The notes beneath the pieces were generated by a model that searched no databases, was not told the DNA's origin, and worked only from the letters and a program-made list of their open reading frames with translations. Both the position numbers and the translations under genes were made by a program. A stretch of DNA of 64,000 nt from Raillietiella orientalis (Eukaryota), in assembly GCA_036172245.1 (NCBI GenBank), contig JAYWIR010000035.1, positions 1,054,001-1,118,000 of the forward strand, given 5' to 3'. Positions 2,806-57,019 of this stretch are shown one piece after another. The first letter of the stretch is position 1. Each line of letters opens with the position of its first letter.

Positions 2806-2975
2806 TTTCCTCCCCTACCCTCTCCTGCGTTCCCCCAGCAACCCAAAAGGGCAATCGCCCTTCCTCTTCTTCCTGTTCTTCCTCTTCTCCATTTCCTCCC
2901 CGGCTCCTCTTCCTGCTCCTGTCTGTTTTGATTCTCACTCCTCTCCCCCTCCTTTCGTCTCCTCCTCCTCTTATC
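2806..2975 (+). repeat. Polypyrimidine (CT/CCT/CTT-rich) low-complexity tract
   Basis: Runs such as ttcctcttcttcctgttcttcctcttctccatttcctcccc and ctcctcctcctct. Confidence 0.75.
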
Positions 2976-3149
2976 CACTGAATCCCGGCTACGTGACCAG
3001 GAGTTGCGAGGTGGCTCCCTCTCCCGGAGGGGGCTTGGGAGAGATCGGCATCTCGATAGGGCGGTCCTAGAGCGTGCCGACGTCTCTCCCTTTTCCTCCT
3101 GCCTCCCTCCTTCCCCCCGGGATGAATAGAGTTGCTGGAGAGCGCTGGC

Positions 3150-3560
3150 TCTGGGCCCGAATGTCCCCCCCCCCTTTCTTCCCAGCCTCACTGCATTGCC
3201 GGGCGATGGCGACCGAAAACCCCCGGAGGGGGGTGCGCGGAAGCAAATGAAACCCCGCAATTCGGCAATTCCCCTTCTGGCTTGTGGTGCCCCAGTTCCT
3301 GCTTCCCCTGACCCTGTCAACCCCCGCTGGCTACGCGGCCACGACGACCTACGGGAAGGCGGAGCCGGAACACGCTCGGGGCCGGGATCTGCACCGAGAT
3401 CCCGTTCCCCTGACAACTGCAAAAGCTGCAAACAAACCAACACCGGAAGAGCCTACAAAGCACGATCCATCCGCTTCTACCCAATCTTGCCAGAATTTCT
3501 TGATTCGTCTCGACTTTCACCTCTTAACCAATTTCTTCTGGCATTGGTTGGTCTCTGAGA
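3150..3560 (-). mobile_element. Degenerate gag-like ORF1 (zinc knuckles) of a non-LTR element, possibly R1 clade
   Basis: The minus strand gives LGRSGWIVLCRLFRCWFVCSFCSCQGNG, resembling 'IGW..CR......C..C...GH', followed in shifted frames by GKQELGHHKP and PNCGVSFASAHP. The region is GC-rich and frameshifted. Confidence 0.35.
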
Positions 3561-13683: not shown

Positions 13684-16600
13684 ATGATAACTGTTATACG
13701 TAAACGAAAGAGGGATGATCGTTTGCAGTGTCTAACACCAAATTCAAATAAAAAAGATCAGATTACCGTGGATATAAGTTCTAAACATAAACGTTCAAAG
13801 CTGAGTTTATGTATTGATGAAAAACATAAAAAGGAGGAAGTCACCAAAAAGCAGAAAGTATGCAAAGTTTGGATTCCTGAAAGTTACAAACGATTTCAGC
13901 AATGTGAACATTGGGAAGTACATTCAGAAGCATCACTGCAGATGGGAGTTCCTTTAATGGCTGTACAAAATTTTTCAAAATTACTGGATGATAACTGTAC
14001 AGTTCCCTTTATTGCAAGATACAGACAAGAAATGGTGAATAACATCACCTGTACTGACCTATGGAAATTGAAAGAGTGTTTGAATAATTTGAAGTAATGA
14101 TTTTTAGAAAGTTATAATATTTAGGCAGACAAAATGTTATAAAGTACTAGTTTACTTATCAAAACTGTATGCATTATTTGAATTGTAAGAACTTAAATTT
14201 GAGAAGTATAAGCAAGAGCTAAAAGTATTTATGTGAAAAAAAAAACTGTTTCGTAACATTTTATAGGATAGGTATTTGTTTTTTACATTGATGCGTTCAA
14301 TCTGTAATGTACTTTAAAAAAAAATGACTAATATTTGATTGCCGTGCTGCTTATGGATATAATGATCCTTCTGTTCATTAGGGAAACAAAGAGTGCCTCT
14401 ATCAAAATTCTTGAATCAGTGGATAAGAAAAAATTGGATTGCACAATTGAATGGCAAGAGGCTGTTTCATCTGCCAAAACACTCCAAGAACTTGAAATTC
14501 TTGTAGGTGTTTTGGGCATTAACACTTATGTAATTTCCAGTAAAGTATGAGCCTTATAGATCCAAGAAAACAAGCTTAGCTGAACGTGCTTGTAAATTAG
14601 GTTTAGAGGAAGTAGCTAAAAATATTCTCATTGATTCTGATATACCCAGCATCAGTGCACTTCAGAAAATTTCCCATCTTAAGAAAGTACAGTCAGTTGA
14701 TGAAATATGGACTGGAGTACAACACATCATTGCAGACATCATTAGCAAACATTTGGATGTCCTGGAATTCATTCGAGAAAAGTTCGAGTTACTCTTGTAA
14801 TGATGCATACTCATTGTAGTGGTTTAAAGGACCAACATTCCTGATATAATGCTGACCACAGAAAAGATCAAATCTAAACGGGTTCCTAATGCTGCAAAGA
14901 CATGTACAGAGAAGGAAGAGCTGAAGTTCGATTTATATCAAAATTTTTCATCATCTTTGAATAATTTGAAAACTCATCAAGTATGTTTGGGATGTTGCTG
15001 ATGAATTATTTTGTTGGCATTAAGGTTTTAGCAATTAATCGTGGAGAGCGTCTCAAGATACTGAGAGTCTCACTTAAACTGCCTAGTTATGTCAATTTTC
15101 AGTTTGAAGCACTTTGCTCTCAGTTGTGGCTGCAACCTCCTTGTAGTTTCAGGAAAGTCTCATTTCTGAAAAAGTGCATTGCAGATGCTTTTACCCGTTT
15201 AGGTAAGTGACTGACTATGAAATGAGACTAATGCCTTTACAGTGAAACGCAGTCTTTTGCGTAGTGTACGCTCACATTTAACTCGCAATGCAGAGCATGC
15301 ATCCTGTGAAATATTCTGTCAGAATCTCCGAAATTTGCTGCTGATGTCACCTGTCAAAGGAAAGACAATTTTAGGAATCGATCCTGGTATGGATATTCAG
15401 TTTTTAGTGTCATTTGTGGTTCAGGATTTTCCCATGGATGCAAATTAGCTGTTATCAATTCATCTGGGGCTGTGTTACATACAGATACTATTTTTGTTCA
15501 TAACAAAGATTCTAAACAGCAAGATGCTGTCTTGGTTTTGCATAATATCTTGCAGAATTTTCAGTGAGTATTTTGCAGGTTTTCTGTGTATGTATGTTCA
15601 TTTAGATGTGAAACCATTGCTTTAGGTACAGGACATGGCTGTAGACTTGCTGAGCAATTCTTAGCAGCTTGTATTTGCAACAACAAGTTTCATCCTTTAA
15701 ATGTAGTGTATTCTTTAGTATCAGAAGAAGGTTCTTCCATTTATTCCTGTTCACCCCAAGCCCAAGCTGAATTTCCTACACTGTCACCATGCCACATCAG
15801 TGCTGGTAAGTGGGTCACTTTGCGATTGTTTATTGTGTTCTCAGTTAGCATTGCTCGCCGACTACAGGACCCATTGGCTGAACTGATTAAAATCGATCCA
15901 TGGCATCTTGGTGTTGGCATGTATCAACATGATCTTCCCAAACAACAACTTCGAGAATGTTTGGAAGACGTTGTAACTGAGTGTGTTAGTCTAATAGGTG
16001 TAGACTTAAATACAGCATCAGAACATTTATTTAGGTAGGAAAAGATGATATGCACCTATGCTTATGTAATACTCATTTAGAAAAGTAGCAGGTTTGAATG
16101 CTAGTAGGGCCAAAAGTATTGTGGCTTTTCGCAGTTTGCATGGAAAATTTTACAGTCGTTCCCAGCTATTAACTGTCAAGGGAATAGGATCCAAATCATA
16201 TGAGCAGTGTGTGGGCTTTATTAGAATTTTGCCAGATTCTCTGTAAGCATATTGAAATTATGCGTGTTTCATTATGAGACTTATTCAGTAATGATTTTTC
16301 ACAAGATAAAAATCATACTAAAAAAGATAAGCATGGAAAGGAATTAGAGGTGAATCCATTGGATAGAACTTTTATCCATCCAGAATCCTATGCTCTGGCG
16401 AAAAGGTAGTCTTCAAGTAATTTTGCTATTACCATACTCTGTTTTCAGAATTCTGGAAGTGTTGAATTTGAATACCTTGGAGATTGGTCTCGCAGCATTT
16501 GCAAAAAAAGTAAAAACTTTTGCACAATTCCATGGTAAGACAAGCAAAATTTCCTACATTTTTCCTACATTTGTTTCAGATACTGCTAAGATGGCACAAC

Positions 16601-17044: not shown

Positions 17045-19316
17045 TAATAGTTAAATGCTGAGATTAACAAAAAAAGAATAGTGGAGAATATAAGATTTCA
17101 AAGAACACCAGATTCATGGTTTTTATTTAAATTGATGAAGTTGGTTGTACATATGTGTACAGCTTTTAAGCTGATCTCTGTATGGAATACATTCCATTTT
17201 TACTGTATGGTAAGTCACATGAAAGTGCAAGTCAGGATAAGGTTAGCATTGATGCAAAATTCAAACACACTGTTGCAGTTTGATAATACAAGGTGCATTC
17301 TCGACAACTGCTACTGTTAAAAAATTTGACATTTGCAGTATTCAGATATTGCTTACTAAATCAGCCAAAAACTATGATCTACTCTAATAGTTAGCAAGGG
17401 ATGAGGAAGGAAGGGCTAAGTGTAAAAACATGTGTATATTATTCATTGAATACAGAAAACAATGTAAAAAAACGTAATTCATTAAATTAGATAAATGAAC
17501 TATTCCAAAAATTGTGAACACAAATCATTTAACAGACAGCTGATACAAGAATTCTTTTTCCTACAAAGATTGTACACAAATTCAAAACTTTTTTATGGAT
17601 TCTAAAAGACTGCAAAACAGCATATACTCTGCAACTGGTACTCATACTACTGATGCACACATTTGTAATGTAGTGATTTTACATGTTTGTTTTGTTTTGC
17701 TTATAATTTAAACCAATAAACACAGAAATGAATCACTTCATTACAGTAAACATCTATATTATACATTCAACAGACAGCATTTTATTGAAGAAGACCCAAT
17801 ATTCAGCAGTAAAGATGCGTTGATCAACGAATCCAGTTCAAATAATTAAATTCTGCACCAAAGTATGGGTTACTCATTCAGTTGTTGGTCCACAAAAGTT
17901 TCTGCTACTTTGAGAAGAAAAAAATTTACGAACTCAACAACGGATCTTTATTTATTATGGCTGCGTAATCATTTGGAATTGGAATCGTTCTATCAATTTA
18001 TTTGGGCTTTAATTAAACTGGGGATGAGTAAAACTCCCTACTCAGATGGTAGGTAGTGAAACCTTAACGGTAAAATTGAGGAATTACAGTTAAGTGCCTT
18101 TCCATTTAATTTTCAAACTCCCAGTTTCCAGTTTTAGTTACAATAACAAAAATTCATTGTGAATGAAGAATCAAAAAGAGAATGCGGGGACATATCCCGA
18201 ATTGCTTTAGCATGTCGTTCATCTGTGCCTTATGATTTTGAATTATCGATTACGATGGGCGACTTCTCACAAAGCAACCCACGCGTTCCGTTAAAAGCGT
18301 GCTCGAGTTTTACTGGTTAGTCACGAAGAAAGGATGAAAGACCCCCTTTGTATTTTCATATTACGACAAAGTCATATCTAAAATTGTATTTTTACTTTAA
18401 TTTTTCATGAAATGTGGTATCTTTTACGTATGATGTGGATCTAAAACAATATAAACATATTAGCATTCATTACATTGCTGAAATTTTTTATAAGTGAGAT
18501 CATTCCAATTTGAATTTCAGAAATTCAAACTGCATGCATTGCTTTGATAAAAATTCATTTCGGTGTAATGGGATAAAATTTTATTAGACTTCATTACAGC
18601 AGAATAGATGGAAGTAGAAGAAAGAAAGGCAATAACGAATGTTTTGTAAACGTTTTTTTTTTTTTGATGCTTTGAAAAATTTGAAAAATATGCTCATGTA
18701 TTAGAGTGAATATTATATATTTTTTTTGTGCGAATTGAAATAATATGTGAGATATAAATTAAAAGTATAAAAACAAGGTGCAGAACAAGGTTATTATAAT
18801 ATCAAAATTCATTCTACTAAAATAAGCTGAAGCTTCATACAATAGGTGGTATGCGTGTTGGCGAACTACTCGCCCTTGTTTCTGTTGGGAGTATATTTCA
18901 AGTTTTTTTGAAACGGTAATGGGGAACTCTACATGTATTTGTTTGATTTGAATTGAAAGTGTTTGTTTGTGCCAATAGAGTTAATCATTGAAAAATAAGC
19001 ACCTTTTATCTTTGATCTCAGTGTTTAAGCCCAATATTTGAATGTTTTGATTAATTTTTTGATTTCGTTTACTAGGGCAGTTTAATTTAATTTTTTTTTT
19101 CATTTTAATGCCTCATTGTAATGTGTTGAAAGTATATTTTAGCATTTGAAAGTTAATTTTCATTTGAGAGCCAATATTAAGTTTAATTGTGACTTCTATC
19201 AGTACCCAGTAATTATTTGTTCAGTATTTAAGTTCAGAAGTATCAGTAATTATTCCTTTATGGTATAAGTTAGGTACATGATCACATGTAGAATATTAGA
19301 ATGATAAGCAAAAATA

Positions 19317-19991
19317 ATGAGTGGCACGGTGTATCACTGCCCTAAAAGTGCTTGTGAAGCTAATTTCCGAACTCGTTCAGGGTTGATAAATCATTTGCGA
19401 CATCATCGTACTGAAAGACCATTAGAGTGTGAACATTGTCAAAAACAGTTTTCCTGGTGGGGACATCTAGTAAGTCATGTTCAGTTAGTTCATGGCGATT
19501 TAGAACAGTCAGTCAATCTGTATAGTTGTGAAATATGTAAATTGAAATTTAAAGATATTGAAACATTTAAGCAACATATTCATACAGGATACCAGGCATC
19601 AGGAGAAAGCGAAACCATGACTCAATATAAATGTGATGTATGTCAGGCCTTGTTTCGTACTCTTTCTCTGTTGAATACACATAAAACTAAAGAACACATC
19701 ATGGAAGATAATCAGTTGAAATGTCCTATGTGTACTAAAGTGTTCCATCGGAAATATAATCTCATAAGACATTTAGAGACCCATGATAAAAATGAAGATC
19801 CTGAACGCTATTATCAGTTTAGTTGTCATATATGTGGTGCTAGTTTTTATCGTAAAGATCATTTAAAAAGACATTTAATAATTCATCAGAATGTAAAGCC
19901 TTATGAGTGTAATATTTGTAAAAAAACATTTAGGAGAAATGATAGTTTAGCCAAACATTTAAAACGGCATCAAGTTTTGTGCAGCAAATGA
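19317..19991 (+). CDS. Intronless C2H2 zinc-finger protein, 224 aa, ~7 fingers
   Basis: Repeated CxxC-x12-HxxxH units (e.g. CPMCTKVFHRKYNLIRHLETH, CHICGASFYRKDHLKRHLIIH) with KPYEC/RPLEC linkers. AATAAA signals at ~20094 and ~20109. Confidence 0.92.
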   Translation: MSGTVYHCPKSACEANFRTRSGLINHLRHHRTERPLECEHCQKQFSWWGHLVSHVQLVHGDLEQSVNLYSCEICKLKFKDIETFKQHIHTGYQASGESETMTQYKCDVCQALFRTLSLLNTHKTKEHIMEDNQLKCPMCTKVFHRKYNLIRHLETHDKNEDPERYYQFSCHICGASFYRKDHLKRHLIIHQNVKPYECNICKKTFRRNDSLAKHLKRHQVLCSK

Positions 19992-23899: not shown

Positions 23900-24480
23900 A
23901 AATCTATAGGATTCACAGAGCATGAAAACAAAATTATCAAGAGACCAAGCTGGTTTTCTTGTATTGAAATCTCGCAATTCACGTTAAAATCGCGAGTGGC
24001 TATTCTAGTGAATGGCCACTCATTGCTTTATTCCACAAAAAAAAAATAAATAAAGATCTGGAATATGGAAGTGCCATCCAACTTTCTTTTGAGAACAAGG
24101 AAACTGATGAATGGGTAGTATAAGGTGTCCTTATCAATTGCAGAGCCACATTTGGATTACAATAAAGCTGAAAGGGTTCATCAGTTATAGAAAGGTTTTA
24201 CAGCAACCAATTAGCAGAAATCCACATGCACGTACATTGTGGGAAGTAAGGTACGTACTTTTTATGTAAAGTACTTTTTTCCTTTAGTTTTCCGTAATTT
24301 TCTCTGAACTTTTGTAATGAAGCAGTGAGTCACACCACCTGAACCCAAATTTCCCTGAATGCTAGTTTACAAACTGATGATAACATGATCTGCACTGATT
24401 GCATAACATGGTGTTTTGACCCCATAGCATGCAACAAAGTCGCTTTCAAGCCGATTTTCCGTTGTCTCAATCACACGATA
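23900..24480 (-). mobile_element. Possible decayed LINE APE endonuclease fragment
   Basis: Minus-strand IETTENRL (cf. ITETWL) followed by IATRDFNVN (cf. LGDFNVD) in the expected order. Confidence 0.25.
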
Positions 24481-26526
24481 CCTTTGAAGAATAATATCAT
24501 ATAAATTAGATGTACAGAAATCCTCTCAATGGGTGTCACAAAATCGAAAGGGAATCCTGAGAAACTGAAAACTTTATCTCCTCCTTCATGTAATTTTATG
24601 AAAATGCCAAGATCAAATGTGATTTCATCGTTGCATTTCAGTCAAGACACCAAACAAACAACCCTTTCATCTGGTAGTTTGCCACTTGTTATGCACACAA
24701 ATGATCGTTAGTGATGTGTGAATGCCACTGCGGAACGGAGTGCTTCGTAAAATACGCTTTGTGCTCGTCTCCGGTGCATCCTATTGTTTCTATGCAAAGA
24801 TATATTCATGTGTGACTACTTCACAAAAGGCCTCCAATTCATAAAGGAACGTGGAAATACGGCATGCAAACAACGGAAGTGTGAATCATCGGTATGAACT
24901 CCACAATTAACTGCAAACCGAACGCTGCTCGACATGAAATTTTACAAGCAACTTGCATTGCCAGACATGATAGAGAGTCCAAAGAGCCTCTTTCCCTTAA
25001 GAAACTCCAGCAAGCTACCAAAAGAATGCCTACTGCAGGATTCAAGAAGAGGAATCTGTTCCAAATATGGAAACCTCCCAATCGATGAAAAGAAATAAAA
25101 CAAAATGCAAAACTCCTGAAAAGAAATAACTTTAAGGCTTATACCAGACTACAAAGTATCTGGAACTAGCGGTACCATTGCAACTGCCCCCTTCCGCTTC
25201 TTCTGCGGAGAACGAAGAGGCCTCTTGCACAACACCAAAAGGAAAACGGACGTGGAAAACCCGAGGAAGCAACACTAAGCGTTTGCTCAAACACTTAGTG
25301 TTCCTTGGGCCGAACCAGTCTGGCTGCTTGGCAGCAATCCTCCAGCAGTGGTGGTGATCCCGTCAACCAGAAGGGAGCAAGGGAGCGATTTGTACTTGAG
25401 GCCTCTTTGTAGGACTGAAAACGAAAGCATCAAAGTTTTCCCGAACTGGCTACACAAAAAATCTCCTACGTTTTTAGCAAGTAACTGTTTTCAATAAAAC
25501 TGCCTTCCAGGTGGAGATCACGGCAACTGCCAACAAAAATTACCGATACTCAAATATCGACATGTGCATTTGAAGATTGCATATTTTGTCCCTGAATTCA
25601 AAATCTTGAATATTAATATTTCATCAGTTCAATATATAATCACACGCTTGACATTCAAAATAGTGAATGTTAAACTATAATTCAACCGTTCTTTAATTTG
25701 ATACTATTTGGAATAGAAACTATAAAGACAAGTTAAAATGCTGTGTATTTCTCCTGAGCTTAATTGTAGAAATACTTGAAAACAGACTTGATGGGAAGAA
25801 TGTGAACTTTCTATAGGAGTATTCTACTGAAAATTTCGAACTTTCATTAGTTGTTCTTCCGATACATTGCCCCAGGTTTCTCTCGTTGTTGTTGGCTGGT
25901 GTTTATGACCTGATCAAGAGAGTGATCCGGAACAATAAATACAAATTACCACGCAAAGTGCTTGAAATATTCGTTTTTTCCCATGTATTCTTCCTTTTAG
26001 ATGAAAAAAAAAATGTGAAACGAAAAATGTGAAACGTGCTATCGCGAAAACAGAAAGCACAGCTCTGCAGCTTCCTATCCGGCTTCCTATCCACTCTGCA
26101 GCTTCCAGCAATCACTTAAATAACAGTTAGATTGCCGAGATTCCTGGACAGGAAGCTGAAGTCGACGTTTATATTACGCTTGCATATCCTGAGCATCCAT
26201 TTATTATAGAAGGTTATCTACTCAGGAAAGAATAAATTTTTCTCTCCAAATACCGGACTTTAATAATAAAAAAAAAATGGATGCCGTAGTTAGGAGGAAA
26301 TAAGTTTTAGTCAGATTGTGTTTCGTACTATAAACTGATTTCAGATGTCTGAGAACAGGATGTCGAGAGCCTCTCAGGAAAGGAAGCACCTGTGCTCTCA
26401 AGAGTTACAGACAGCATGCCAGACAAACGCCGTCAACCAGAAAAAAGTAGTGCAATCAGCAATCCATGCAAGAGCAAATGTTGCATGAGCCACATCTAGG
26501 AGACCATTCAATTACGACCATCTGCA

Positions 26527-26544
26527 TGGCGCCATCTGGTGGCA
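26527..26544 (-). promoter_or_regulatory. Candidate CTCF insulator binding site
   Basis: The minus strand reads TGCCACCAGATGGCGCCA, a near-consensus CTCF core (CCASYAGRKGGCRS). Confidence 0.45.
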
Positions 26545-29500
26545 GCTGAACGTTAATTCTGAAAGCCTAGGAGAACGTCTCGTAAAATGCGAGCAAAGTG
26601 GAATGATTTTTATTCAGACGTGCACAGAGTTGAAAATATTAGTGACGGGGACCAAGAGTTTGGAAAAACTTGCAAGTCATGCCATTTGCATCATCCAATT
26701 GCAAATTGCTACTCTTTATGGAAATGAAGGCTACCTTCACGAGACTACGCAAAGGAAAACTGTTCGTGCTAGAAAGCTTGAAGACACATAGCCATGTTGC
26801 CGTATGAAAAGGAATTTCTTGTAAAGGCGCAGAAAGTAAATACAATAAAAAAAGAAAAAGTTCCCTTTGCAAGCACTAAACTGTTTTTTCCTTCCAGCTT
26901 TTTTTTTTCGGGTTTTTTGTTTTTTGGTTCGCTAGGGCGTGTAATCCTACAGTGTAATTCTTCAGGATAGGGGGCACCCTGGGACCGGAAAATTTCGTTT
27001 GGTGGAGGCCGCGTTTCTTAGTTAGAAAGAGGGAGCAGGGTCCACAAAGCGTTTCAAGAATAACAGGAAGCGATGGGATAGCAAAGTCAACTGTGGCACT
27101 GGATTCGTTCCTTTCGCAACAGTACAAGTTTCAATGTGTCGGGAATTTTTGCATGCCGAAGAAAGTCACGTTTTTTTTCTTCAGGATAGTCGCGAATTTG
27201 CCTCATTTATCTGAAGGCTACAAGCATGGGTGTCATCTTCAAATGAAGCAATTGCTGCTGACATGTGTCCATGCAGCTCCATAAAGGATAAATGAAACTA
27301 TTGGAAATCTGTTTCCCTGGTAAAAGGTTTTTTCTTATACTCCTTCGACATTGTTTGATGCTAAAGCCAGAAAGCTGTAGACGTTGCAGCGAAGTCAGCA
27401 CCAGCACTTTCCGCGCCGAGATGAGAAACAGATGGGAAGATGCATCTTTTCGATTCTTCTGACAAACACCTGATTGCGTAGGCGCGACAGAATACGCAAT
27501 TCCCGACGCAATAGTCTGGATGACTTGGACCAGATCCGGTTGAAATGAGAGAGACTGATGACGGATAATCGCAGTTTATATGAGTGCTTTCCAGGGTCCC
27601 GGACGAGAAGGATAAGAAGTTCTGTTCGTAGATCTCAGAGCCTAGAATATGTTTGCTAACGCTACCTTTCGAGAAAGACATACGGACACCATAGCTGGAT
27701 TTGGGAGGTTGGGATTTCCTCTTGGTCTCTGCCCTCTTTTTTCCCGCAAAGATGAGACTGACTGCAACTCACTTCAAATCTAGAAGCTTGTTTCCGAATT
27801 CCAGCAGAAGAGTGGAATGGTTAACGAAGATCGAAAACATCCGATAGCCATTGTCCAAGACTCGAAAAATATGCACGCATTATCGTACTCTCCAGAACTC
27901 TGTTTACAAGTTTTGTCTTGTAAGGAGCCAATGTGCGTAAAGCCCTTCACCGGATTAAAAAAAATCTATCAAAAGGTCGTTCTGGTGTCGTCGTTTTGGT
28001 GACTTCAGAAGACGGAATCTTTCGAGAATTCTGCAATGCTGGTCTGCTAAGATCCCATTGCTTTCCTTGAAGACCAAGCAATAGATAGGAAGCCCGTCTG
28101 GAGGATTTTAGTAAGGATAAACATCCAAACCTAGGGCTAGAGAAGCAAATTTCCCAGTTTGTAAGCATCTCTGATACGCCACAGAAGAAAAGAAAGAAAC
28201 AGGGGAGAGAAAGGTTTCATCCATATAAGCAAACTCTGACACATATTCGGTTGAAATAACGTATCTGCAACCTTTCTTGTTCAAACAAGTTTCGAATGAA
28301 AATGTCAGCAGAAAGTTCAAGTGTAAAGTTTAAAGTCAGTGTACGTATCTACAAGATGTCAGTATTTCAATTATCCAAGATTATGTATATATCTCTGTCA
28401 TTCTGTATTGCATTTCTTGCGAGTCTCCTTGAGTGAGCAGCACTTACTGAGCTATTTGCATCAGCGGGGTTCTGCTGTCCTTTGCTTGCCCGAATAGAGA
28501 TATACATGCTGTCCATTCCTCATGAATGATTCATCGTTCCCAGAGACGGCCGTGTTATCTATAACCTCAACTTGACTGCAGTGCATTTTTTCTCGACTAA
28601 AATAACAATCAACAGATGTAAATTTAGTAGCAAAGAGCAAAAATGACAAAATTTACGGCATGATTGAAAATAGAGGAAAGGAAGTTAAACATTACAGGTC
28701 GTGCTCCGATTCAGCACCAAGACACGAAACTTCGTCAGCAGAATGATGCTGTTTAAAGGAATGCAAGCGGCTCGATGCACGGAAGCGAAGAACAAAAGGA
28801 GCATGCTTCTCTCATAGGGTCAAAAAAAAAAAAAAAACATGCAGCCAAATGCTTCTATGGAATTTGTTACTGACAGAAGTGATGATGTCTGTCAGTTTCG
28901 ATGTGCGTAACATCAATACGACATGGGAAGCTACTTAGAGATGGGATCTATATCTACGAAGCATGACAGGGATGTGCCCTATTCTGGATTTTTCAGTAAG
29001 AAAGAGACAGAAAAAAAAGAAAACAGACAGAGCATAAATAGCTCTATGTACGAAAACAATAAAAGACAGAAGAACCAATACAGGGGATTTGTTAAAAAAC
29101 GAATTTATTTTCTACAGGTCGTGTTGGGAGTTCCGGTGGTCGAATCGCCATTTCGAGTACATATTTTTTATTGTCCGACATTCCATTCGAAGCAAATGTG
29201 CTACTAGTAAAGTTGGCAAATTCCTCGCCATCATGCAAGGGAGAATGCGATGAAGGGAATGTGCGTGGAGAGAACTCGAAGTTACAAGGCGTTGGGAAAG
29301 CCGTGGGTGCTAGGTTCGGGAACGGAAATGCCTTCCGAATAAAGCTGAAGACGTTTACAACTTCTAGCATTCTTACCTGATAACACCTTGATCCCGAAAT
29401 GCACGAAAACCTGCCACCGAATGAAGACGGGTGTGCCAAAGAGTATTTTTTTTCATCGTATACGCAACAGCTGTACGGTTGAAATTTGTTTGCCACGGGA

Positions 29501-30059
29501 AACTTGGAAAAACAGGGGAATCCGAGAAATAGCCTAACGAACAATTTTTGGGAACCCTACAATCGAAGATGCTTGCACGGGTGTTCATGCAGTCTTGCGG
29601 CTCAGTTGGCTGGATTACAATCCGGCTCAACACAGGGGCAAGAGCTCATCAAATTGGGCTCAACCTGTTGACTGTCCGAACAACCGAGGTGAAGTAACGA
29701 GAGTGCTCATGGCATTCCCGAAAATTTTTCCGCACGGCAACGTGGCTGCTTGATTGCCTTTTTCCTCGAGACGATGTGGGTTCTTCTATCCCCTTTCCCC
29801 CCTCTCTATAAGATCAAGCAGTGAGAAACACACTCGATCCACAGATGGACCGGTGCTGCCCCTGCCATTCACGGAAGACAAATGGTTTCGCATCGGCGTG
29901 CGTTTCCTCGTTTTTCGCAAGCCTGTTGATGAGATGAGAAACCTGGGCTCGAGCAGGAAAAACAAAACGCGAAAGTCATCAGCATGACTTTGGGTTCATG
30001 CCTTACCCCAGGTCCGATGAGCAGTAGGGTCGGTTTGTTTATCTAAGCTCAAGCTATTC

Positions 30060-31188
30060 ACAAAATTTCGCTACCGCACTGCGCGCGTTTAAGACTCCAC
30101 ACTGAACCTCGCATATTCTGGATCTCCGTCCTGGAACATTCGCATTTAGGAGGAGGGCAGGAGGTTGTTAGGACCCCCTTGCACTCGCTTGGACATCTGC
30201 AGCTTTTGCAGGTTGTACCTGAGTATCCAGGAAGACAAGCCTTGCTGCCGTTGCATATCACGATCTCCTTTGCCGGCAAGTTTTTCCCCTGGGTGAGCTC
30301 CCACCTTCTCTTCAAGGCTCTCACGATGAAGGAGGCGTACCATGTGGTTCTATGCCGGGGCTACGCCGCCACTGCGGAAGAGCCCACTCGGGGTTTGCGA
30401 CGACTTCTCAGAGTCTGTCACCTGTCGAGCTACTTTCCAATCATGGGGTGTGTCACCCGGTCACACCGGGGTGTTTATTAAAAACGCTCTATACGTTAGC
30501 GGTGGACCCGCTACGGGCGCTGCTTGTGCTCCATTGGGGACTTTTAAGCAGAGCACGCCTGTCTCACTGGACATTGGGGAGACTGGATGCCCATTGTGCG
30601 GGGAAAGGGAGACCTTCCCCCACTTAATAATCGAGTGTGTTGCCCTCCGCCTCATGTGGGATCGACTCTCGTCGGCCCTACACATTCCGGTGGGCGACCC
30701 TAAAAACATTTTTCGTCGCCTCCTGATTCGGGACGCCCTGCCAGCCGCCGCGTGGGTTGCAGTTCTCTGCAGCATACGCGGAATCCTGGATAAGTGGACC
30801 GCGTCAAGAAGAGGTCGCAGGAGTCGGAATGCCATCCACTGGGCAGTCATCTCCATGGAGAAGGCCTCAAGTTGGCGCCGGCTAAGTAAAATTCTGTCAG
30901 CACTTCTTCGCATCCAGGACCAGATGCAGAGGCCTCTTTACGGCGTACCGTGATCCCTTCCCTTCCCTCCCCTCCCCATAGACACTGTCCCCCAGGCGTT
31001 TTTGTTTTTTTTTCCTGGTTTTTCCGCCCCCTTCGCCAGTGGAGAGGACCTTACCGACCTGCTGGTCGGTACGGACAGATGCCCCAAGACAGTCAGAACC
31101 ATGTGTTCTGACTGAAAAAATTTAAGAAAGGGCCAGACTTCATTGTAAAATTTGAATAATAATAGCCCCGGCTTACCCGGGTGAAAAA
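30060..31188 (+). mobile_element. 3' part of a second Tx1/L1-clade retrotransposon (frameshifted ORF2 C-terminus with zf-RVT, 3' UTR, short A tail)
   Basis: PRIFWISVL, then FIKNALYV and GCPLCGERETFPHLIIECVALRLMWDRL (zf-RVT), with stop at 30951-30953. The 3' UTR is pyrimidine-rich, with a terminal stem-loop CCCGG-CTTAC-CCGGG and A5 at 31184-31188. The 5' boundary is approximate. Confidence 0.85.
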
Positions 31189-31347
31189 CCCACTCTCGGC
31201 ACGGGGATGTAGTGACAAAAAATAACGATACGGGACTCATATGAGGCCCCGTAATCGCAATGAGTAAACTTTAAATCCTTTAACGAGGATCTAATGGAGG
31301 GCAAGTCAGGTGCCAGTAGCCGCGGTAATTTCTGCTCCATAAGTATA
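31188..31347 (+). rRNA. Degenerate ~160-nt 18S rRNA fragment (non-functional)
   Basis: ACCCACTCTCGGCACGGGGATGTAGTGACAAAAAATAACGATACGGGACTC...TTTAAATCCTTTAACGAGGATCTAATGGAGGGCAAGTCAGGTGCCAGTAGCCGCGGTAATT is colinear with eukaryotic 18S up to the universal GTGCCAGCAGCCGCGGTAA (530 loop) motif. It has several substitutions at normally invariant positions, and no further rDNA is visible on either side. Confidence 0.95.
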
Positions 31348-33220
31348 CGAGAAGTCGAGGAGCTTGTCTTCCAGCTTCTCACTCTGGGTTTCATCCACCA
31401 CATTATTTATACCCTCCTGGACCTTGGAGATGCGTTGCAGGAGTTTCCCCTGCTCCTCTCCGCTGGTTCCCGGTTGGACCTCTTCATTCAGCTTCGCCAA
31501 TCCCTCATTGATTTGCAGAGTTTCCTGCGTTTCCTGCGTTTACGGGCTCGCTGTTTCCATTTTCTCTTGTGTTTTTCCTCGGGCCTGTCGGAGGCCTGCT
31601 GCTCCTTGGCAAGCATCCTCCTCTTCCCCTTTTTCCTCACTTCGATGAAGCCGTCCTCCGATACTGGGACGACCTCCCTTACTTTTTTCACCTTCTCGGT
31701 GATTTTTTGAGGCTGTTTCACATCCTTCTGGGGTCTCTCTCGTAGAGGTGAGTCCGCGCATGGTACAACCAGTTGGCGTATTCCGGGAAGCTCCACCTCG
31801 CGTGGCCCGTTGCCTTACAGAAGGCACACACTTCAGGCTGGTTGCAAGACTGGATCTGGTGTCCCTGCTTGCCGCAGCGGAAGCACCGAGATCTTGGACA
31901 AGCAGTGACCCTGTTGCCAAAGTGCTTGCAACCCGTGCAAAATATTGGCTGTTACCTATATCGTATGAAGACTTCCTGGGAAGCCCCATCGATGTGGGCG
32001 AGTCCCGGAATCTTCGCATCCCCAAATAAATTGGTCTTGGCGATGACATCTCCGAATAACACCTTTCCGGAGTAGTTCCGGAAGATCACATCCAAAGCTT
32101 CCCTGTACTTGGTTAGGAAACTCCATACCGCTTGTTTATTTGTTGTCACACGGAATCCTCCAAGAAACACCGTCGTATAAGGCATTTCACAGATTCTGTG
32201 CACCATCCTCCCTTGTACATTTATGCCCTTTTCGATCAGGGCCTCGATGAGGGGTTCACTATCGGCGTAGACTGAGAACCCCGTCGTGCTCGATTTGATT
32301 GCTTGTACGTGGTCAAAGTCTATATTCTCTTTATAGAGGGCCAAATACACCTCTTTGATATTATTTATCCTGATGTGCCGTGTTTTGAATGTGATCGGCT
32401 TCACATTCGGACTGATCCGCACGATCGGCTCATCCACATTTTCGATTTCGCCAACCTCCGGCTTTCCAAATGTTCGTGGTGGTGATTGAGCGTTGGAATT
32501 TCCGGCCGCCACTGCCGCGTAAGAAAATGGCAGCGTCGTTGCAACCGAACAAGATGGCGTCGCGTCCTTCGAGCTCCCCACTACTTGGGAGGTCGTAGGC
32601 TGCGATGCCAGCGCTGTTACATAGGTGACACGCGGCGACACTGCACATTCGCCGAACGCTACCTCCATCAGCTGAGGTGACGTCGGCCTGTCCTCCAACT
32701 CCCCTTGCATTCTTGCGGCGGACTGGTGAACTCCTGTCGCCGTGGTGGAATGCAAGTCCTCCACTGTGATGTCGCTGCTGCTGGTTATTGTCCTCAGCTG
32801 CTCTGCATTGTCACTGGAGGTTGGGATGGAGTCACTGTCCCCCTTTTGCTCTGGAACATTTAGACCTTCCCTGTGGGTAGGATTTGGGGATGATTTGCAG
32901 TTTTAAACTCCTTCGACCCTGAGTCGTTCGTTAAACCCGTTTGCCGTAACTGGTTATGCACGCCCGTAAGCACTCTCTTGCCGCGGCTTGGCGAGTGCAT
33001 ACGGGAACTCCAGAATTCTTTCGGGAGTCACGGATCGCCGTTCCCTTGGGAACTCCCTCCAAAGAGGCTCTACGTACCCGAGGTCCTTTCCCAAGTATTG
33101 CCAGTTTGGTCCCTTCGGGGTTCCTCTTAACAGCGTCACACGTATCCTCAGGTGGCGTGACAGTGAAGGAAAAACCTCGTGAACCTCCATGCGGCAGCGG
33201 CATTGAGCCTCTCTAAGGGG
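31348..33220 (-). mobile_element. 5' part of a Tx1-type retrotransposon: structured leader plus pseudogenised ORF1 (three CCHC knuckles, ZCCHC3-like)
   Basis: Frame open 32902-31952 with SYAAVAA. Past an in-frame stop it reads VFIRYR*QPIFCTGCKHFGNRVTACPRSRCFRCGKQGHQIQSCNQPEVCAFCKATGHARWS (Tx1 'Y.GQP' plus 3 knuckles). A frameshifted DGFIEVRKKGKRR basic tail follows, truncated at the 18S fragment. Confidence 0.85.
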
Positions 33221-36079
33221 TGAACGATTCTTGAGTACTATGCGAACCACGAAAAAGAGAGCCTGGAACGAAGACAGCAAATCGAAGAACCACAGGATTC
33301 CATTCTACGTCTCGAATTCGCTAACCAACTTGTTTTCGCCATCGTTGCCGTCCATAATTTCCGTTGCTGCTTTCAAGCTTCAAGATCTGCATCGCCGCTT
33401 TTTTCCAGAGGTACCACCTTTGGCTTCAGCAAAAATCAATGATGTTGGATGGCACGAAAGGCTGGCCTAAAGTTGCTAGAACTGTTTGCGATTTCCTGGG
33501 GAGCGGTCTGCTTTCGAGCCGGGGTCTTCAGCTCTCCATGACAACCCCACGAGTTTTTTCCTCGTATTTTTTTTTTTTAAATAGGGGAGCTTATTGAATT
33601 CTTTGCTTTCCCCAGACTTCGTAACCTGAGCTCAGTACGGCTTGTTGCCATCTTTGGAAGTAGCAAAACTTATAGGAAACGATTCGAGAAGAGAAAATAC
33701 CCTTTTTGCTTGAGATGGAACCCAAGCAGAAGAAAGCATTTCCATTTTCTGGAGAAGCCAGGGAGGAAGAAAGCATACTCCAGTCTAATCCGGATGGAAG
33801 ACGTGATTCCTGTGGAAGCAACAACAGCAGATAGTTTTTTCGCTATTAACACCCGAGAAGACTAACTTTGTTAGGACGGGATCATTCGAATCCTTCCGAG
33901 GAATTAACTACGTTCCCATGGAAACAAATTGTGAAAGAAGAAATGCGCTGTATCAGGTAAGAACAAAAATTCTATTGGTCTGTGTACGTTTTGCAAGCTG
34001 GGAATGATTTCTAAATGGGCTTTGGTGGAACACAATAGCAACTGGTAAGCGCATCCTCTTCCATATGGAGAGCATAACTCGTGGATCGAAGCACCCATCG
34101 AACAAAGACAAACATTCCCCCAGAATAGATCATAGATTTCCGTAAAAATACGACTGTATAAAAGAGTATTCCTGCCACATATCAGAAATTCCTGTTATGC
34201 TGATTCGCCTCATTATCGACTTTGCCCACCATTTCGTGTATTTGTGATCTTGGACATATAAGGATATGCCGAAGGATGTTCGACTCTCATAGAAAGAATC
34301 GTGATGGGATTATTGCTCGAGGAACTTTGATTCTGTGCAAAATTGCAATTCTTTTGATATGAAGATCTGTGGAAATTATCCAGGAATTTTACGAATAACG
34401 TGGAAGCAGGAAATGAGCACCATCCAAACGGAATGAGAGCTGCAAGCATTTATAAATTGGCTGCACAGCATCCAGCACGTGATGATTGTTGCAACTTTTA
34501 AACTGAAATTCGATGTTCATCACTTAACAGTAGTGCACACTGAATTTTGAACGAATGGCTCTGTGAAGCTCAGAGCCGAGAGAACAGAGATGTCAGCGAA
34601 GTATGGGACTCCGGTCTCCAGTGTCCCGTAGTCATAATGGTCGAGGTAGAGGAGAAGTAGGAAGAAAAGTGGTTGCAGCAGTTGTAGCACTAAGGTAAGA
34701 TGCGGAGTAAAATTGTGAGGAAGAAGAGGAAAAAACAAAACTTCCTTTTTTCTTCCAAATGGAAAGCGAATTCGAAAATCAATAGATGTTAACCTCAGTT
34801 TCATTTTCAAGGACGTCAGTTAATCGTCATTGAACCCTTCGATTTAACTCTTCTTTACTTGGTTGGTGTGATTTTTTTCAAGTGGTTCCTCAAATGTCGG
34901 AAGAAAAAAAAAAACTTGGTGATGAGAGCAGATGACGATGCTGGCTTACTTGGAGACAGAATCAAGAACGAAGCTAGTGGATGCGTTGCAAGGCAGAACG
35001 ATCTCGTTCCTTGCTCCCTGAAGTGTTCTCCGGGAATGTTGAGGGTATTTTGATGGTTTCCTGTTTTCCACTTTATGATTCTGCTTGCGTTAGCCAAGGG
35101 CATGGCATGCGAAGGTTATAGTCGAAGCCGCGTTCATCAGGAACAGCAGAACTAAATAAGTGAAGCGATGAAGCGTTGGATAGTGAAAAATAATGAGAAG
35201 ATTGCTATCGATGGTGTTTGCTGCCGGTCTTGGAAACTATTTCCGAGGTCTCAGAAAGCCACATCCCAGAACCTCCTCCGCTTCACACTTCAGTGTACCT
35301 CCTTGCTTGCTTGGAAGGACATTGAAACCAAAGGAATAGTTTTCTCAAGGCTAGTTGATTCCGGTTCGGATGAGGTCTTGGTCTTTCGAAGACGCAGCAA
35401 TGCCAGTTTACGATTCGCAACACAGAAGCCTGCTGCCACCCTCACCTAGCGAAAGATACAGAATTCCAGTTGTGCCAGGTCATTTATTCACATGGAATAA
35501 GCATACAGTACAGAAATAGCCTTCGTCCGAATGAGTCCATTGGGGAGACCCCAAAGTGAAATAATCAGGATGAGAGTGGAGGGCGAAAGGGTAGGGTTAG
35601 GGAATAAATGAACAGATGGTGAAAGGGATGGACCGGTCTTTAACTAGTAATGACTCCTTGGAGAGTGAGTCGAGAAGATTTGAGGATGGGAAAGGGGAAA
35701 AACAGTTGTAGCTCACCAGTTTGGTTTGCGTAGCTTGTCTGCAGTTGTTCCGATGAGCCTTTGAGCGTCAATTGGGGACCAATCCACGACCACTACGCAT
35801 CTGTTCTACTAAAGAATTGAAGGATTCTCGGGATGATAGCAGAAGAGCAGCAGTGATGCTTTTCTGCTGTTCGGACGCTACTGTTATTCCTATAAAGCAA
35901 AATCTTGCTAAAGGGAAGGCAGCCGGCAATTACGAGAAGAACGCTCTCCTCACCACTTATTGGAGTGAGATCACCGGAGTGGACCAGAACAATGTGTAGT
36001 CTAGTCATCTGCCTAGGGTTTGGCATGAAGGCAGCCTTCCATATTCCAGATGAGGAAGAACTAGAAAAAAATAAAATAA

Positions 36080-36550
36080 AAACTTACTGCTGGAGCTCCC
36101 ACCAGTTTGCTGATAAGGGTTTGTCGATGATGTCTCTTGACAACAGTAGTCTGCTCATACAGAGCAACGTCTCACCTCACGCACTTCTGATTATTTCCCT
36201 GATCCATGTGATCTTAGTGCTCACGAATGAAACGCAAGCAACCCTTTCGTGATCGAAAGGATTCTGTGACTAATCGTTCGCACTCCAGGCATCGAAGCCT
36301 TTTGCGGTCCGAATGCTCCGTTTACCCATTCGAAGCTCCAATTTTAATACATGGTGCAGCAGCACAAAGCACTTCCAGATGATGGAACGATTGGACAAAG
36401 TCTTCCAGTCGTAGAAGGAGACCCTGATAAAAATGATGGGCAATTATGTTTGGTTTCTGTGCCTCCTTTATGACTTTGGACTGTCGAACAATGTAGGAGT
36501 TTCAAAGGAGATTGATCATTCCAGAGTAGGAAGCACTCATTCATTGCTTG
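36080..36550 (-). mobile_element. Possible decayed LINE reverse transcriptase fragment
   Basis: Minus-strand DHMDQGNNQKCVR*DV...HRQTLISKLVG resembles 'LD.G..V..V.LD...AFD.V.H..LL.KL'. Confidence 0.3.
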
Positions 36551-39500
36551 CGCCTGCAGTGATCTGGAATTCGCTCTTATTTTTTTTTTTTTTTTGAAAG
36601 TCGTTAGTCCTGATTGCTACTTGTATCAATTTGTATCATGAGAAGACGTCCTGTATGCGACATGCCTAACAAAAACAAATACTTCAAAAACCTTTTAAGC
36701 TTTACTGTAGCAACACGTGTATGCGTGCATAGACTACATACTATTTCATATGTGTCTCACTTATTATGTACTGCTCATCCCTCATTGATGAATTTTCTTA
36801 TGTTATTTGGCATGCATTGCAATTCTTCTTATAGATACACATTTTCTATAAAATTTTCAAATTCTAAAAAAAAAGAATGATCGACATATGTCAATAGCTC
36901 AAGCTATTATGAGGTTCTATTTCTGCCGTCCGAATCATGTTCTTAGTATCGTGCGGTTAGTGAAGTCAAAAGATCCATCCTTGCATCCCTTAAAGTATTC
37001 CGCAGTCTCTCAGGGTCGTTTTATACATATCTGCACGTTCCAGATCGAGAATTTCTTGGCGATGTCCCTTTATTTCTTAGCAAGGAGAATCCTTGGAATT
37101 TCTACCACAGCCTCGTCCGGAGTAGATTGTCCGTCTGGGTGGGAAGGTGATTCAAGGAGATCAGTCACTCATCTAACGAATTATTGATCTCTTCATTGAA
37201 AAATAAATTTTCAACCTTTCGGGCAGAGTTGGAGATTTGGCAACAAATTTTAGATAAGTACACAAGCAATAGATCTGGAAAACATTGCATCTGAGAAAAA
37301 TGAGAATAGAGATCGAGCCGTGCTGGAACGCAACTTCAGCTCTTTAGCACAGTTAATAAAAGGCTGGGCGGGAGGATTTATGACATCATTTGTGATGTAC
37401 AGAACCTCATAGGCGGCATGCTCTAGCTCCCGTTCTCTCCAGAACCGGAAACAGAAGAGTTCGTAAGGGCTGCTCCTACGGTCGAAAGGGGAATGGGTGG
37501 AGAGTCAGATCGGCATGAGTTGTGCACACCTGAAACGCCTATTCCGCTGTGGACCACGTATCCGTTCAAACAGCGTTCTGTGGCCACAGTTCCATGCAAA
37601 CAAATACCACATGTTAAACGAAACAAAAAAATTACAAGTGAAAAGCAAAAGGTTGCCACTCCAAATTAAATCTTAGTAATCAGTTATTCGGATCAATTTC
37701 AAATGTATTACGTATGGTATACTTGACAAAGTGCGAACTGTTATTCTCACTTTGTCCATTAATGAATATATTATTTATATTTAGGTATAAGAAGTTTATC
37801 TTATCTCTGTACAAGCATTTAATAATGAAACAAAACAAAAGTAATCCACATTTATTATGTACGTTCATGGTATTAATTATCCTTCCCTGTAATGTATCGG
37901 TCTCTAAGAAATCGATTAAACAATATGATAAAAAATATTAATTTTAATTTACTTTTAAATGAGTTGAGTATATTTTCATCAGCAAGCTTCAGCTGCTTAC
38001 AAATTCGAAGAATTCTCAAGGGCAACACTGGGAAAGCTGCAGGTTGCATTTTTTCCATCTTTAGCTAGATTCTGATCGTTCGTGATCTCAATCAAGCATT
38101 CTGTGGGCCTTTTCAGCTGTAGAAGAAAGCGATTCACAATCTGTCAGAATGGACAAGGTTGTGCCATACGAGGATGTTAACTATTTGTCTAGCAGCACAT
38201 CTGCACATTTACCCAACCATGCCATACACTTGTTACGGGACAATGCAGACTCATGCCCCACTTCAGTCATGCCTGCCATGCCTGCTAGCTGTTTACATGA
38301 GCAGCAAGACTCCACCAAATCCTATATCTACTGGAGAAGGGGAGGTATGCTTACTTTCCGGGGTTTGCACACGAGAGAAAGGACGGCGGCTGTCCAAAGG
38401 ACTCGACCCCCCCCCACACACACTCCCTGTGTCAGATAGGAAGCGCACGATGCAATCATCACAACCAAGCATTGCAAACGAGTGGTACCTTCAGCAGCTA
38501 CTTATAGCCATTAGTACCACCCTCCGCCGCAATTGCTGCAGAGGGGAGGTGGAAAACTCTTGCTCTTGTTTACTCCACTCGTCCACTTATGATGTCCTGG
38601 ACCCCGTTCGAAAACTGACCGTTTTTCCCGCAACAAGACCAAATAGGAAAAACAGTAGCAGCCTTTGGACCAATTTCCTCATTCTCAATCGAGGGAAAAG
38701 TCTAACCGTAAACACGTCAACTTTTTCGAATGCTGCCTTGAATCCACCATTCGGAACTCAGGCTGCTCATGACGAACCCTGAGGCTCAAACTGCGCCCAT
38801 ACGTTCCTAGAAGCCAGAAGCAGCATCCTTTCTTGAACCACACTTTTTACAAATCACATCCTCCTTGTGTTCCTCTTTCCAATCTCTTCCACTCCTGGGC
38901 GCCAATCCTTGCTAGCTGAGCGTTTTAGCAGTCGCGATGCTTCTTTGTAAGGATTGCAAAGCTGCAAACTCTTGGTCGAACGCATGCTGCTTCACATGGT
39001 ATCCGTGACTCGAGCACAACCTCCCAACGCTCACCCAAAAGCAACGAGGGTTTCATCGAAAGAGAAGGAAGATGCAGAGTGCTTTCTCGAAACTCCACAC
39101 ACACGGCAAACCAAGGTATGAATCGAAACACACCAATCTGCACCCATTTTCGAGGCATACGTGTACGTGTCCCATGGTTCTACTACTATCTTTGCGCGAC
39201 AGACTGGATGCAAGCACTCACAGTCAACCTGCTGTACGAAAGGCAGCCCTGCATACGTATTGCCTAATGGTGGGATTACATCATATCTCAGTATCAGAGA
39301 CAACTATGATTGCTAGAAAGAATTAGGCACATTCCGTGTTAGGATTTCAAAAAGTGGACTTGAATCTCAGATCTTGCAGATCAAGATAACTTACTCGTTT
39401 CATTATTGTTAGTTTACCTTGCTGGAAATGCATAAAAAACATAACCTATCAGAATCTGAGTTGATGTTCATAAATTTTGGAGATGTGTACGTGTTTTTTA

Positions 39501-49611: not shown

Positions 49612-55428
<5,817 letters not shown>

Positions 55429-57019
55429 TGACAGTTTTCTATTTATGTTTAGTTGTGTTTGATGCTGTGATCATGCCCACAAGGTTAAATTGAACGTTTA
55501 TTTATTGAATTCACTTTTGTTTCTTACTTTCACTAACTTGTTCATTTATATGAATGTTGCCTGCTCGTTCCCAGGTGTATTTTATTAGGTACTGCCTCCC
55601 AGATTGTAGACTCACACATATATAAATAAAGTAAAATCCTTTTTGTTTATTCACTAGTAAAAGTAATGGAAATAAACTGATGTCAGCATACTTAAGTTTT
55701 TATGAAATTCATTTGAAACACCATGTGACTATCGTGATGTGTAACTTTTTCTCACATGTAGTTATTATATGATGGAATGTTTGAAAATGCGAGTTGCAAA
55801 TGAAAATTGGAAAAAAAAAAAATAAAACTGATAAATTTGTTTGCTATATTGTTGCTGACACAATATTGTTGCTGTAACTCACTTTGTTAATGATGGAAAA
55901 TGTTTTCTGTGTCTCCAGTCTATAATGTTTTACTGATTGTAACAAAAGTTAACAATAAAGGTAGAATTGTATTTCCATTGAGTTTGCAAAGAATAGAAAC
56001 GTGTTTAGCACCACTAGACAAATGAAGTTGTAAGGTTTTCTCGACGAGAGTAGCCCGATTAGTGATTTCTTCCCAGCCCTTGTTGGTAAAGTAAAATCAA
56101 AGACTCCATTCATGAATATATGAATGTTGGAAAATGCGGTGGTTTGCAGCCCGAGCTTGCCACATTGGAGGAAAAAATCATGAGTAAATATTGCCAATGT
56201 TCTGTCGAGGATTTCTAGGTTGGAACATTTTTTATCTGATTGTGCTACTTGCGTGGATATGGGTCAGACGCGGAAATACAGCACACGATAAGTTCAAACT
56301 TTTGAAAGAGTACCCTTGAATGGAGAAAGACTGGTAATTTTGGAACTTTCAAGAAATTTACTCCCTTATTTTATAATCTGTCGGGCAACCGACGCTTGCG
56401 AAACATTGTATAGTTTATTGATGTCTACAATGTATTGGCTACATAAAAGGCACTTTCTAGAAAAAAATTGTATTTGTCATATAAAAACCATATTTGTTAA
56501 ACAGCAGTGGTGTATACTTTCCCGAGTCCTAACAAACAATATAAAAAGCAGCAAGTTGCGCCGCGTACTTTACTTGGGATCAAACCGAGTAACACTTTTT
56601 GTTAATTTGTAAGAATCTTTTCTCATACTACGATGTTTTGGTATGTGCCTCGTGCGTTTGTCTGTGTATGCGTATCACAGTGTGTTTTTCGTTCTACATT
56701 GCCAGTGTTGCTACAATATTATTTCCAGACGTTACAGTTTGTGTGACGAATTCCTAGCTAGGCATTTGCATTATAATTTCGTTTTCGGACTCTTGCGATG
56801 GTGTAACACTGATGGACGGGTCATTTTTGTGCAACCGCAGCAGTAATAGATGGTTAGGTGTTCGTATTTAATTCCGATGAGCTGATTGGAAGAGTGAGTT
56901 TCACCTGTCTACGAAGTGTAGAATTCGGAAAGACAGAAAGGGGAAAAAAATCAGGTTATGACGGTGCAGGTTTTTAAAAAGAAAGTCAAATATATATTGA
57001 AACCAAACAAAAGGCATGT

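Follow-up and report, generated by a model that had tools for sequence, protein, structure and literature searches.

In a 64-kb stretch of Raillietiella orientalis DNA (contig JAYWIR010000035.1, positions 1,054,001 to 1,118,000; hereafter the window), the decayed 3′ end of a long interspersed nuclear element (LINE) was found to run directly into a fragment of 18S rRNA sequence on the same strand. Read from left to right, the locus consists of a coding remnant attributed to the C-terminus of a LINE open reading frame 2 (ORF2), a presumed 3′ untranslated region (UTR), a run of five adenines (A5) and about 158 nt of 18S sequence. Both the LINE part and the 18S part are decayed, and the 18S piece stands isolated from any other 18S sequence in its surroundings. 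The explanation that we favour, at about even probability, is that a dead, 5′-truncated LINE of the L1/Tx1 group was copied to this locus from a parent situated in an 18S gene and brought about 158 nt of downstream 18S flank with it.

The extent of the 18S homology was determined with an Rfam covariance-model scan over the full length of the window. The sole match at gathering level was to the eukaryotic small subunit (SSU) rRNA model RF01960 at 31135-31346 on the forward strand, scoring 126 bits where the gathering score is 50 (E 1.1e-33). Residue-level alignment placed the true 18S homology at model positions 443 (ACCCAC...) to 600, corresponding to 31188/9-31346 and stopping just beyond the 530-loop motif. 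The outermost left part of the match, 31135-31152 aligned to model positions 28-45 as an apparent 18S 5′ end, was rejected as a spurious anchor, since a search of 31060-31190 alone returned nothing for SSU up to E 10.

The left edge of the homology was placed at 31187/31188 from 18S amplicon contigs of the public run X1, which fit the window from 31188 rightwards. To the left of this edge the contigs carry GCGCGCAAATT, which is missing from the window, where the letters upstream of 31188 read ...CCCCGGCTTACCCGGGTGAAAA. The A at 31188 is assignable either to the A-run or to the 18S sequence (...AAATT-A-CCCAC). The A5 run, presumed to be a short poly(A) tail, is annotated at 31184..31188 (+) and the 18S rRNA pseudogene fragment at 31189..31346 (+; RF01960 positions about 444-600), with a mutated 530-loop motif, GTGCCAGTAGCCGCGGTAATTTCTGC, inside it. 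The run X1 shared 0.04 of sampled words with the window, and its short contigs cover only 31188-31349, the 18S part, leaving the LINE part uncovered; this coverage is uninformative on the LINE family in either direction.

The sequence, the Rfam alignment and the X1 contigs agree that 18S sequence is joined in the same orientation to a LINE-type ORF2 C-terminus with a UTR and a short A-run, as had been proposed from a reading of the sequence without database searches (the sequence-only reading). The alignment and the contigs also bear out its placement of the junction, about 120 nt on the 5′ side of the 530-loop motif. The canonical CCCACTCCCGG quoted in that reading differs from the window, which reads CCCACTCTCGG. 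The junction itself is real.

The 18S piece represents about 158 of the 1831 RF01960 model positions and is not a full-length functional gene. Of the 82 consensus positions written in upper case (highly conserved), 7 are changed by a by-eye count on the Rfam alignment. Five of these seven changes sit in the 530-loop stretch GTGCCAG-T-AGCCGCGGTAATT-T-C-T-GC, which is nearly invariant across all life, and one of the seven, the C in CCCACU, is presumably the normal metazoan state. The mutation of conserved positions indicates that the 18S piece is an old pseudogene fragment rather than rRNA gene reads mis-joined by the assembler.

No other SSU signal was found up to E 5 in either 24000-31200 or 31300-38000. 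Sequence from 18S is thus absent to the left of the element in 24000-31200 and limited to 158 nt on its right, and no 18S gene is interrupted here. An 18S piece so short and solitary, with no 18S partner across the element, implies that the element was not inserted into an 18S gene here. The suggestion in the sequence-only reading that the flank had been carried from elsewhere fits with this pattern. The LINE part and the 18S part are both old, which is compatible with their deposition in one event.

The coding remnant of the LINE was delimited to 30047..30953 (+), spread over three frames (30047-30481, 30223-30627 and 30330-30953) and with an uncertain 5′ limit. The reading frame upstream of 30330 is broken across at least three frames, and raised G+C extends back beyond the remnant to about 29100. 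The final 207 codons alone remain open, and this stop-to-stop frame, P0001 (30330-30953, +), terminates in a TGA stop codon at 30951..30953 (+). It contains the motif C87-x2-C90-x7-H98-x4-C103 (CPLCGERETFPHLIIEC; 30588..30638, +), of the type that closes the zf-RVT domain.

An ORF2 C-terminus with a zf-RVT domain had been read from the sequence, and for this assignment the evidence was divided. The CCHC motif is present, and the protein-atlas neighbours of P0001 lend indirect support, with 26 of 30 in the zf-RVT set and a best score of 0.96, at a recognition of 2120, below the 2300 mark. The Pfam comparison of P0001 with zf-RVT (PF13966) was below threshold (E 0.066; 14.3 bits, under the cut-off of 27.5), aligning residues 84-110 with profile positions 58-85 of 85, and the PF13966 search at E 0.01 returned no match for the LINE frame.

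An exhaustive protein search over 1.84 billion representatives returned five matches at E up to 0.001. Residues 123-202 of P0001 matched P0002, an 87-aa ORF on a 2870-bp JGI contig, with 38% identity over 80 residues behind the motif (E 4.7e-8), and this was the one convincing relative in the search. P0005 was weakly linked to P0001 (E 7.2e-4) and itself matched zf-RVT at E 4.9e-5 and 24.3 bits, under the 27.5 cut-off. P0003, P0004 and P0006 were rejected as relatives, being chance matches to repeat proteins. Among longer proteins, relatives were found neither for P0001 nor for the alignment A1 of P0001 with P0002.

From these sequence features we conclude that the coding part is probably a LINE ORF2 C-terminus such as occurs in the L1/Tx1 group. 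The group assignment follows from the elements in which zf-RVT is known to occur, and a CCHC-ended ORF2 is compatible with the target-specific Tx1-clade group. No reverse-transcriptase or apurinic/apyrimidinic (AP) endonuclease (Exo_endo_phos) family was detected among 48 ORF pieces from 24842-33304 and 3-1037 on both strands, some of which were submitted twice to the Pfam search. The missing AP-endonuclease match says nothing about the family, since the copy is 5′-truncated or decayed.

A second LINE ORF2 C-terminus, unrelated to the first, is located at 3-1037 (+) as a 344-codon open frame running off the window start, with the motif CPACGDTDTRLHILTC. Its similarity to P0001 is confined to the CCHC region (E 0.001), and it had no Pfam match at E 0.1. 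Its 3′ UTR closes in an A13 run at about 1298-1310. The shared CCHC region and the A13 end indicate that poly(A)-tailed LINEs of this type live in this genome.

The presumed 3′ UTR of the junction LINE spans about 230 nt (30954..31183, +). Two hairpins within it folded better than all 200 shuffles with which each was compared, one at 31052-31071 (z -4.41, 0/200 as good) and one with a perfect 10-bp stem at 31090-31114 (z -4.89, 0/200 as good), the latter followed directly by an A6 run at 31115-31120. The 5-bp hairpin at 31167-31181, taken for a terminal hairpin in the sequence-only reading, is not above chance (z -1.45), as 19 of 200 shuffles fold equally well. The hairpin at 31090-31114 together with the A6 run is a possible true LINE 3′ end or recognition stem-loop. 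If the LINE were to end at 31120 instead, 68 nt of unexplained A+T-rich sequence would stand ahead of the 18S piece. The claim that no spacer separates the two parts therefore holds in that 18S sequence follows directly after the A5 run, and is conditional in that it presumes the LINE to end at A5, the hairpin with A6 (31090-31120) being the alternative end.

Homology between the LINE end and its 18S flank, as might assist annealing to the target, was considered and rejected. The last 68 nt gave a local alignment score of 16 with downstream 18S sequence against a shuffle mean of 15.1, a score reached by 377 of 1000 shuffles; that of the whole UTR was reached by 308 of 500.

A LINE tail, an A-run and flanking sequence on one strand is the order of a LINE 3′ junction, and 3′ transduction of L1 carries such flank to new loci. 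The order LINE tail, A5 and 18S on one strand, with a sharp edge, is that expected of a 3′ flank carried by a LINE. Under the favoured explanation, a parent copy would have been situated in an 18S gene in sense orientation, between model positions 442 and 443 (...GCAAATT / ACCCAC...). Transcription would have continued past the end of this element into downstream 18S sequence, and the read-through RNA would then have been reverse-transcribed at the present locus outside the ribosomal DNA (rDNA), as a 3′ transduction. Alternatively, and less likely, a small piece of an interrupted rDNA unit may have moved as DNA, leaving the same picture. The copy would have decayed since its deposition. The parent copy in the 18S gene, the read-through RNA and the origin in a single event are what we infer, whereas the junction, the decay of both parts and the isolation of the 18S piece are observed.

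Several observations weigh against this explanation, beginning with the right-hand edge. There the 18S piece adjoins an internally truncated element on the opposite strand, which shows later or accompanying rearrangement. This neighbour, outside the LINE, is a remnant of gag/ORF1-like coding sequence from a different retroelement; it bears a CCHC zinc knuckle and is located at 31347..32902, perhaps extending to about 33300 (-). It comprises a frame of 316 codons (31952-32902, -), a basic/coiled stretch at the C-terminus and, within 31721-31951 (-), the knuckle, where zf-CCHC PF00098 matched at E 3.5e-4 (21.0 bits, above the cut-off of 20.8). The coding frame continues into the 18S piece, indicating that the remnant was cut internally, and a search for the lost 3′ part on the left side of the LINE did not find it. 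No sequence homologues of the remnant were found in the protein search; the protein-atlas leads were arthropod hypothetical proteins at 0.90, and PRE_C2HC on 14% of one cluster. An arrangement by twin priming or inversion involving this minus-strand ORF1-like piece was rejected, since an inverted piece would have to sit 5′ of the tail.

In the same direction, no target-site duplication of at least 7 nt was found between 31335-31380 and 29500-30450, and no A-run follows the 18S piece (after 31346). With neither a duplication nor a tail, the locus lacks the features that mark a single retrotransposition event; these may have been erased by decay or lost with the edges, and decay of roughly 8% could hide a short target-site duplication. 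The true LINE 3′ end is also uncertain from a single copy and could lie at 31090-31120, with the 68-nt gap noted above. Finally, a single copy was available, and one dead copy cannot establish an rDNA-targeting family.

Two other origins for the junction were weighed, each of which we consider unlikely. In one, the junction would be a one-off RNA chimera, in which reverse transcription at this locus started on a fragment of 18S rRNA, ran to the fragment's 5′ end (near position 443) and there switched to the 3′ terminus of a LINE RNA; no parent copy would then ever have occupied an 18S gene. With its 158 nt and its isolation, the 18S piece is in keeping with a retro-copied fragment of RNA, and short rRNA fragments fused to a LINE are represented by 18 described 28S rRNA/LINE-1 chimeras, with a median rRNA segment of 269 nt and 83% in the same orientation (PMC11838501). 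To judge from the partner-first names and the 5′-transduction class used in that source, however, the partner RNA in the described cases lies on the 5′ side of the LINE (PMC11838501), whereas here the 18S piece lies behind the LINE 3′ end. A chimera of this kind would moreover require priming to begin within 18S rRNA, at about position 600, with no poly(A) stretch to start from, and no target-site duplication was found. In U6/L1 chimeras too, the enzyme starts on the LINE RNA and the partner comes to lie on the 5′ side.

The other origin, likewise improbable in our estimate, is the independent arrival of a LINE copy and of an 18S retro-fragment or rDNA scrap, subsequently joined by nested insertion/deletion, with an assembly artefact as its least likely version. 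The setting is suited to such a history, as the block from about 29100 to 33300 is rich in G+C (0.45-0.61 versus 0.40 for the window) and consists of broken retroelement pieces, and the 18S piece is cut on the right by, or together with, the internally truncated opposite-strand element. The failure to find a target-site duplication and the uncertain LINE end also point this way. Against it, the A-run meets the 18S sequence without intervening sequence and in the same orientation, an abutment that chance adjacency rarely gives. Had the LINE entered a resident 18S pseudogene, an upstream 18S remainder would be expected to the left of the LINE, and none is present in 24000-31200. The mutations in the 18S piece speak against its having been mis-joined from rDNA reads.

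The sequence-only reading went further and proposed an AP-endonuclease-type family of the Tx1 clade that aims at this 18S site, with the present copy as a dispersed relic. This is a special case of the favoured explanation and we regard it as possible but doubtful. The junction geometry is the same for both, and a precise junction with a conserved multicopy rRNA gene is what site-specific families leave on nearly every copy. Many Tx1-clade families prefer multicopy RNA genes, microsatellites or transposons (PMC4494074), and 18S-specific LINEs exist in other clades, namely R8 (PMC5035012) and R7 (PMC13708176). On the other hand, the proposed family rests on one copy, and reverse-transcriptase and endonuclease sequence was not found in the 48 ORF pieces. 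The implied bottom-strand nick, GGGT^AATTT, holds a T^A step of the kind that ordinary L1-type endonucleases also use, so that no special enzyme is required.

Target specificity has been assigned to Tx1-clade families when more than 20% of flanks are at the same position (PMC4494074), and no second copy of the LINE is present within the window. In collections of assembled contigs, the junction pattern (A5 + CCCACTC + 7 N + GGGGAGGTAGTGA) gave 0 matches in metagenomes and 0 in prokaryote genomes, and a 21-nt stretch of the LINE end gave 0 matches in viral contigs. At the protein level, A1 gave 234 pattern matches in metagenome contigs with 0 confirmed, and P0002 gave 34 in viral contigs and 600 in prokaryote genome contigs, again with 0 confirmed in each. 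The metagenome, prokaryote genome and viral collections are poor in animal DNA and their blanks weigh little. A full-text literature search, with most subscription journals and Repbase Reports outside its scope, found no L1/Tx1-group LINE specific for 18S; that the site has not been described before is a weak claim.

Among known systems, the junction resembles L1 3′ transduction and the read-through of rDNA-resident R1 and R2 elements, in which downstream parental DNA lies directly behind the 3′ end of the element and moves together with it. Classical cases of L1 3′ transduction differ in having a new poly(A) tail and target-site duplications, neither of which is detectable here. R7 occupies the 18S rDNA of mosquitoes and belongs to the R1 clade, which sets it apart from the present element, and R8 differs in having a restriction-like endonuclease without a zf-RVT-type end. 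The likeness to both lies in their being LINEs at fixed sites of 18S rRNA genes (R8, PMC5035012; R7, PMC13708176), R8 being an R2-clade element of the 18S rDNA of Hydra (PMC5035012).

The targets described for the Tx1 clade include those of Tx1 (in Tx1D), Keno (U2 small nuclear RNA genes), Mutsu (5S rRNA genes), Kibi/Koshi (microsatellites) and Tx1-Mar (Mariner-N4_AMi) (PMC4494074). The element would resemble the target-specific members of this clade, which are of the AP-endonuclease type and in many cases enter a single sequence within multicopy genes or repeats (PMC4494074). It differs from them in its putative target, as those named in the parts of that source available to us are U2, U5, 5S, satellites, microsatellites and DNA or long terminal repeat transposons, with 18S not among them (PMC4494074). 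It differs also in being a candidate member only, with no reverse-transcriptase or endonuclease sequence surviving in the window.

The remainder of the window contains open frames of other kinds. A multi-finger C2H2 zinc-finger frame was identified at 19308-19991 (+; zf-C2H2, E 1.4e-29), and an exon-like one at 15568-16038 (+) contains a Tex YqgF-like domain (PF16921, E 8.4e-15). These two frames indicate that the window is ordinary animal-type DNA with genes rather than an rDNA array. A further exon-like open frame at 54931-55431 (+) matches the end of a calcineurin-like phosphoesterase domain (Metallophos, E 6.1e-5), and by eye we take it to resemble a PP1-type serine/threonine phosphatase catalytic subunit. 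Two overlapping open frames of 211 and 231 codons at 2552-3452 (-) are G+C-rich, Arg/Gly/Glu-rich and of low complexity, and are probably non-coding.

At present the locus amounts to a single old and dead copy among transposon debris, with no sign of function, and the candidate mechanisms are well known. Its value is that of a pointer, as it provides a precise 18S site and a 3′-end sequence to seek in the full genome and in long reads. If the doubtful targeting family were nevertheless real, this copy would be the first trace of an L1/Tx1-group LINE family of the AP-endonuclease type inserting at the 18S site ...GCAAATT / ACCCAC... (442/443). In that case 18S targeting would have arisen independently a third time, in addition to R7 and R8, and the L1/Tx1 group would have its first rRNA-gene target apart from 5S. 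The 5′ domain of 18S rDNA would then join the target list of sequence-specific AP-endonuclease-type LINEs, elements that matter for the evolution of endonuclease specificity and as natural 'safe-harbour' insertion systems.

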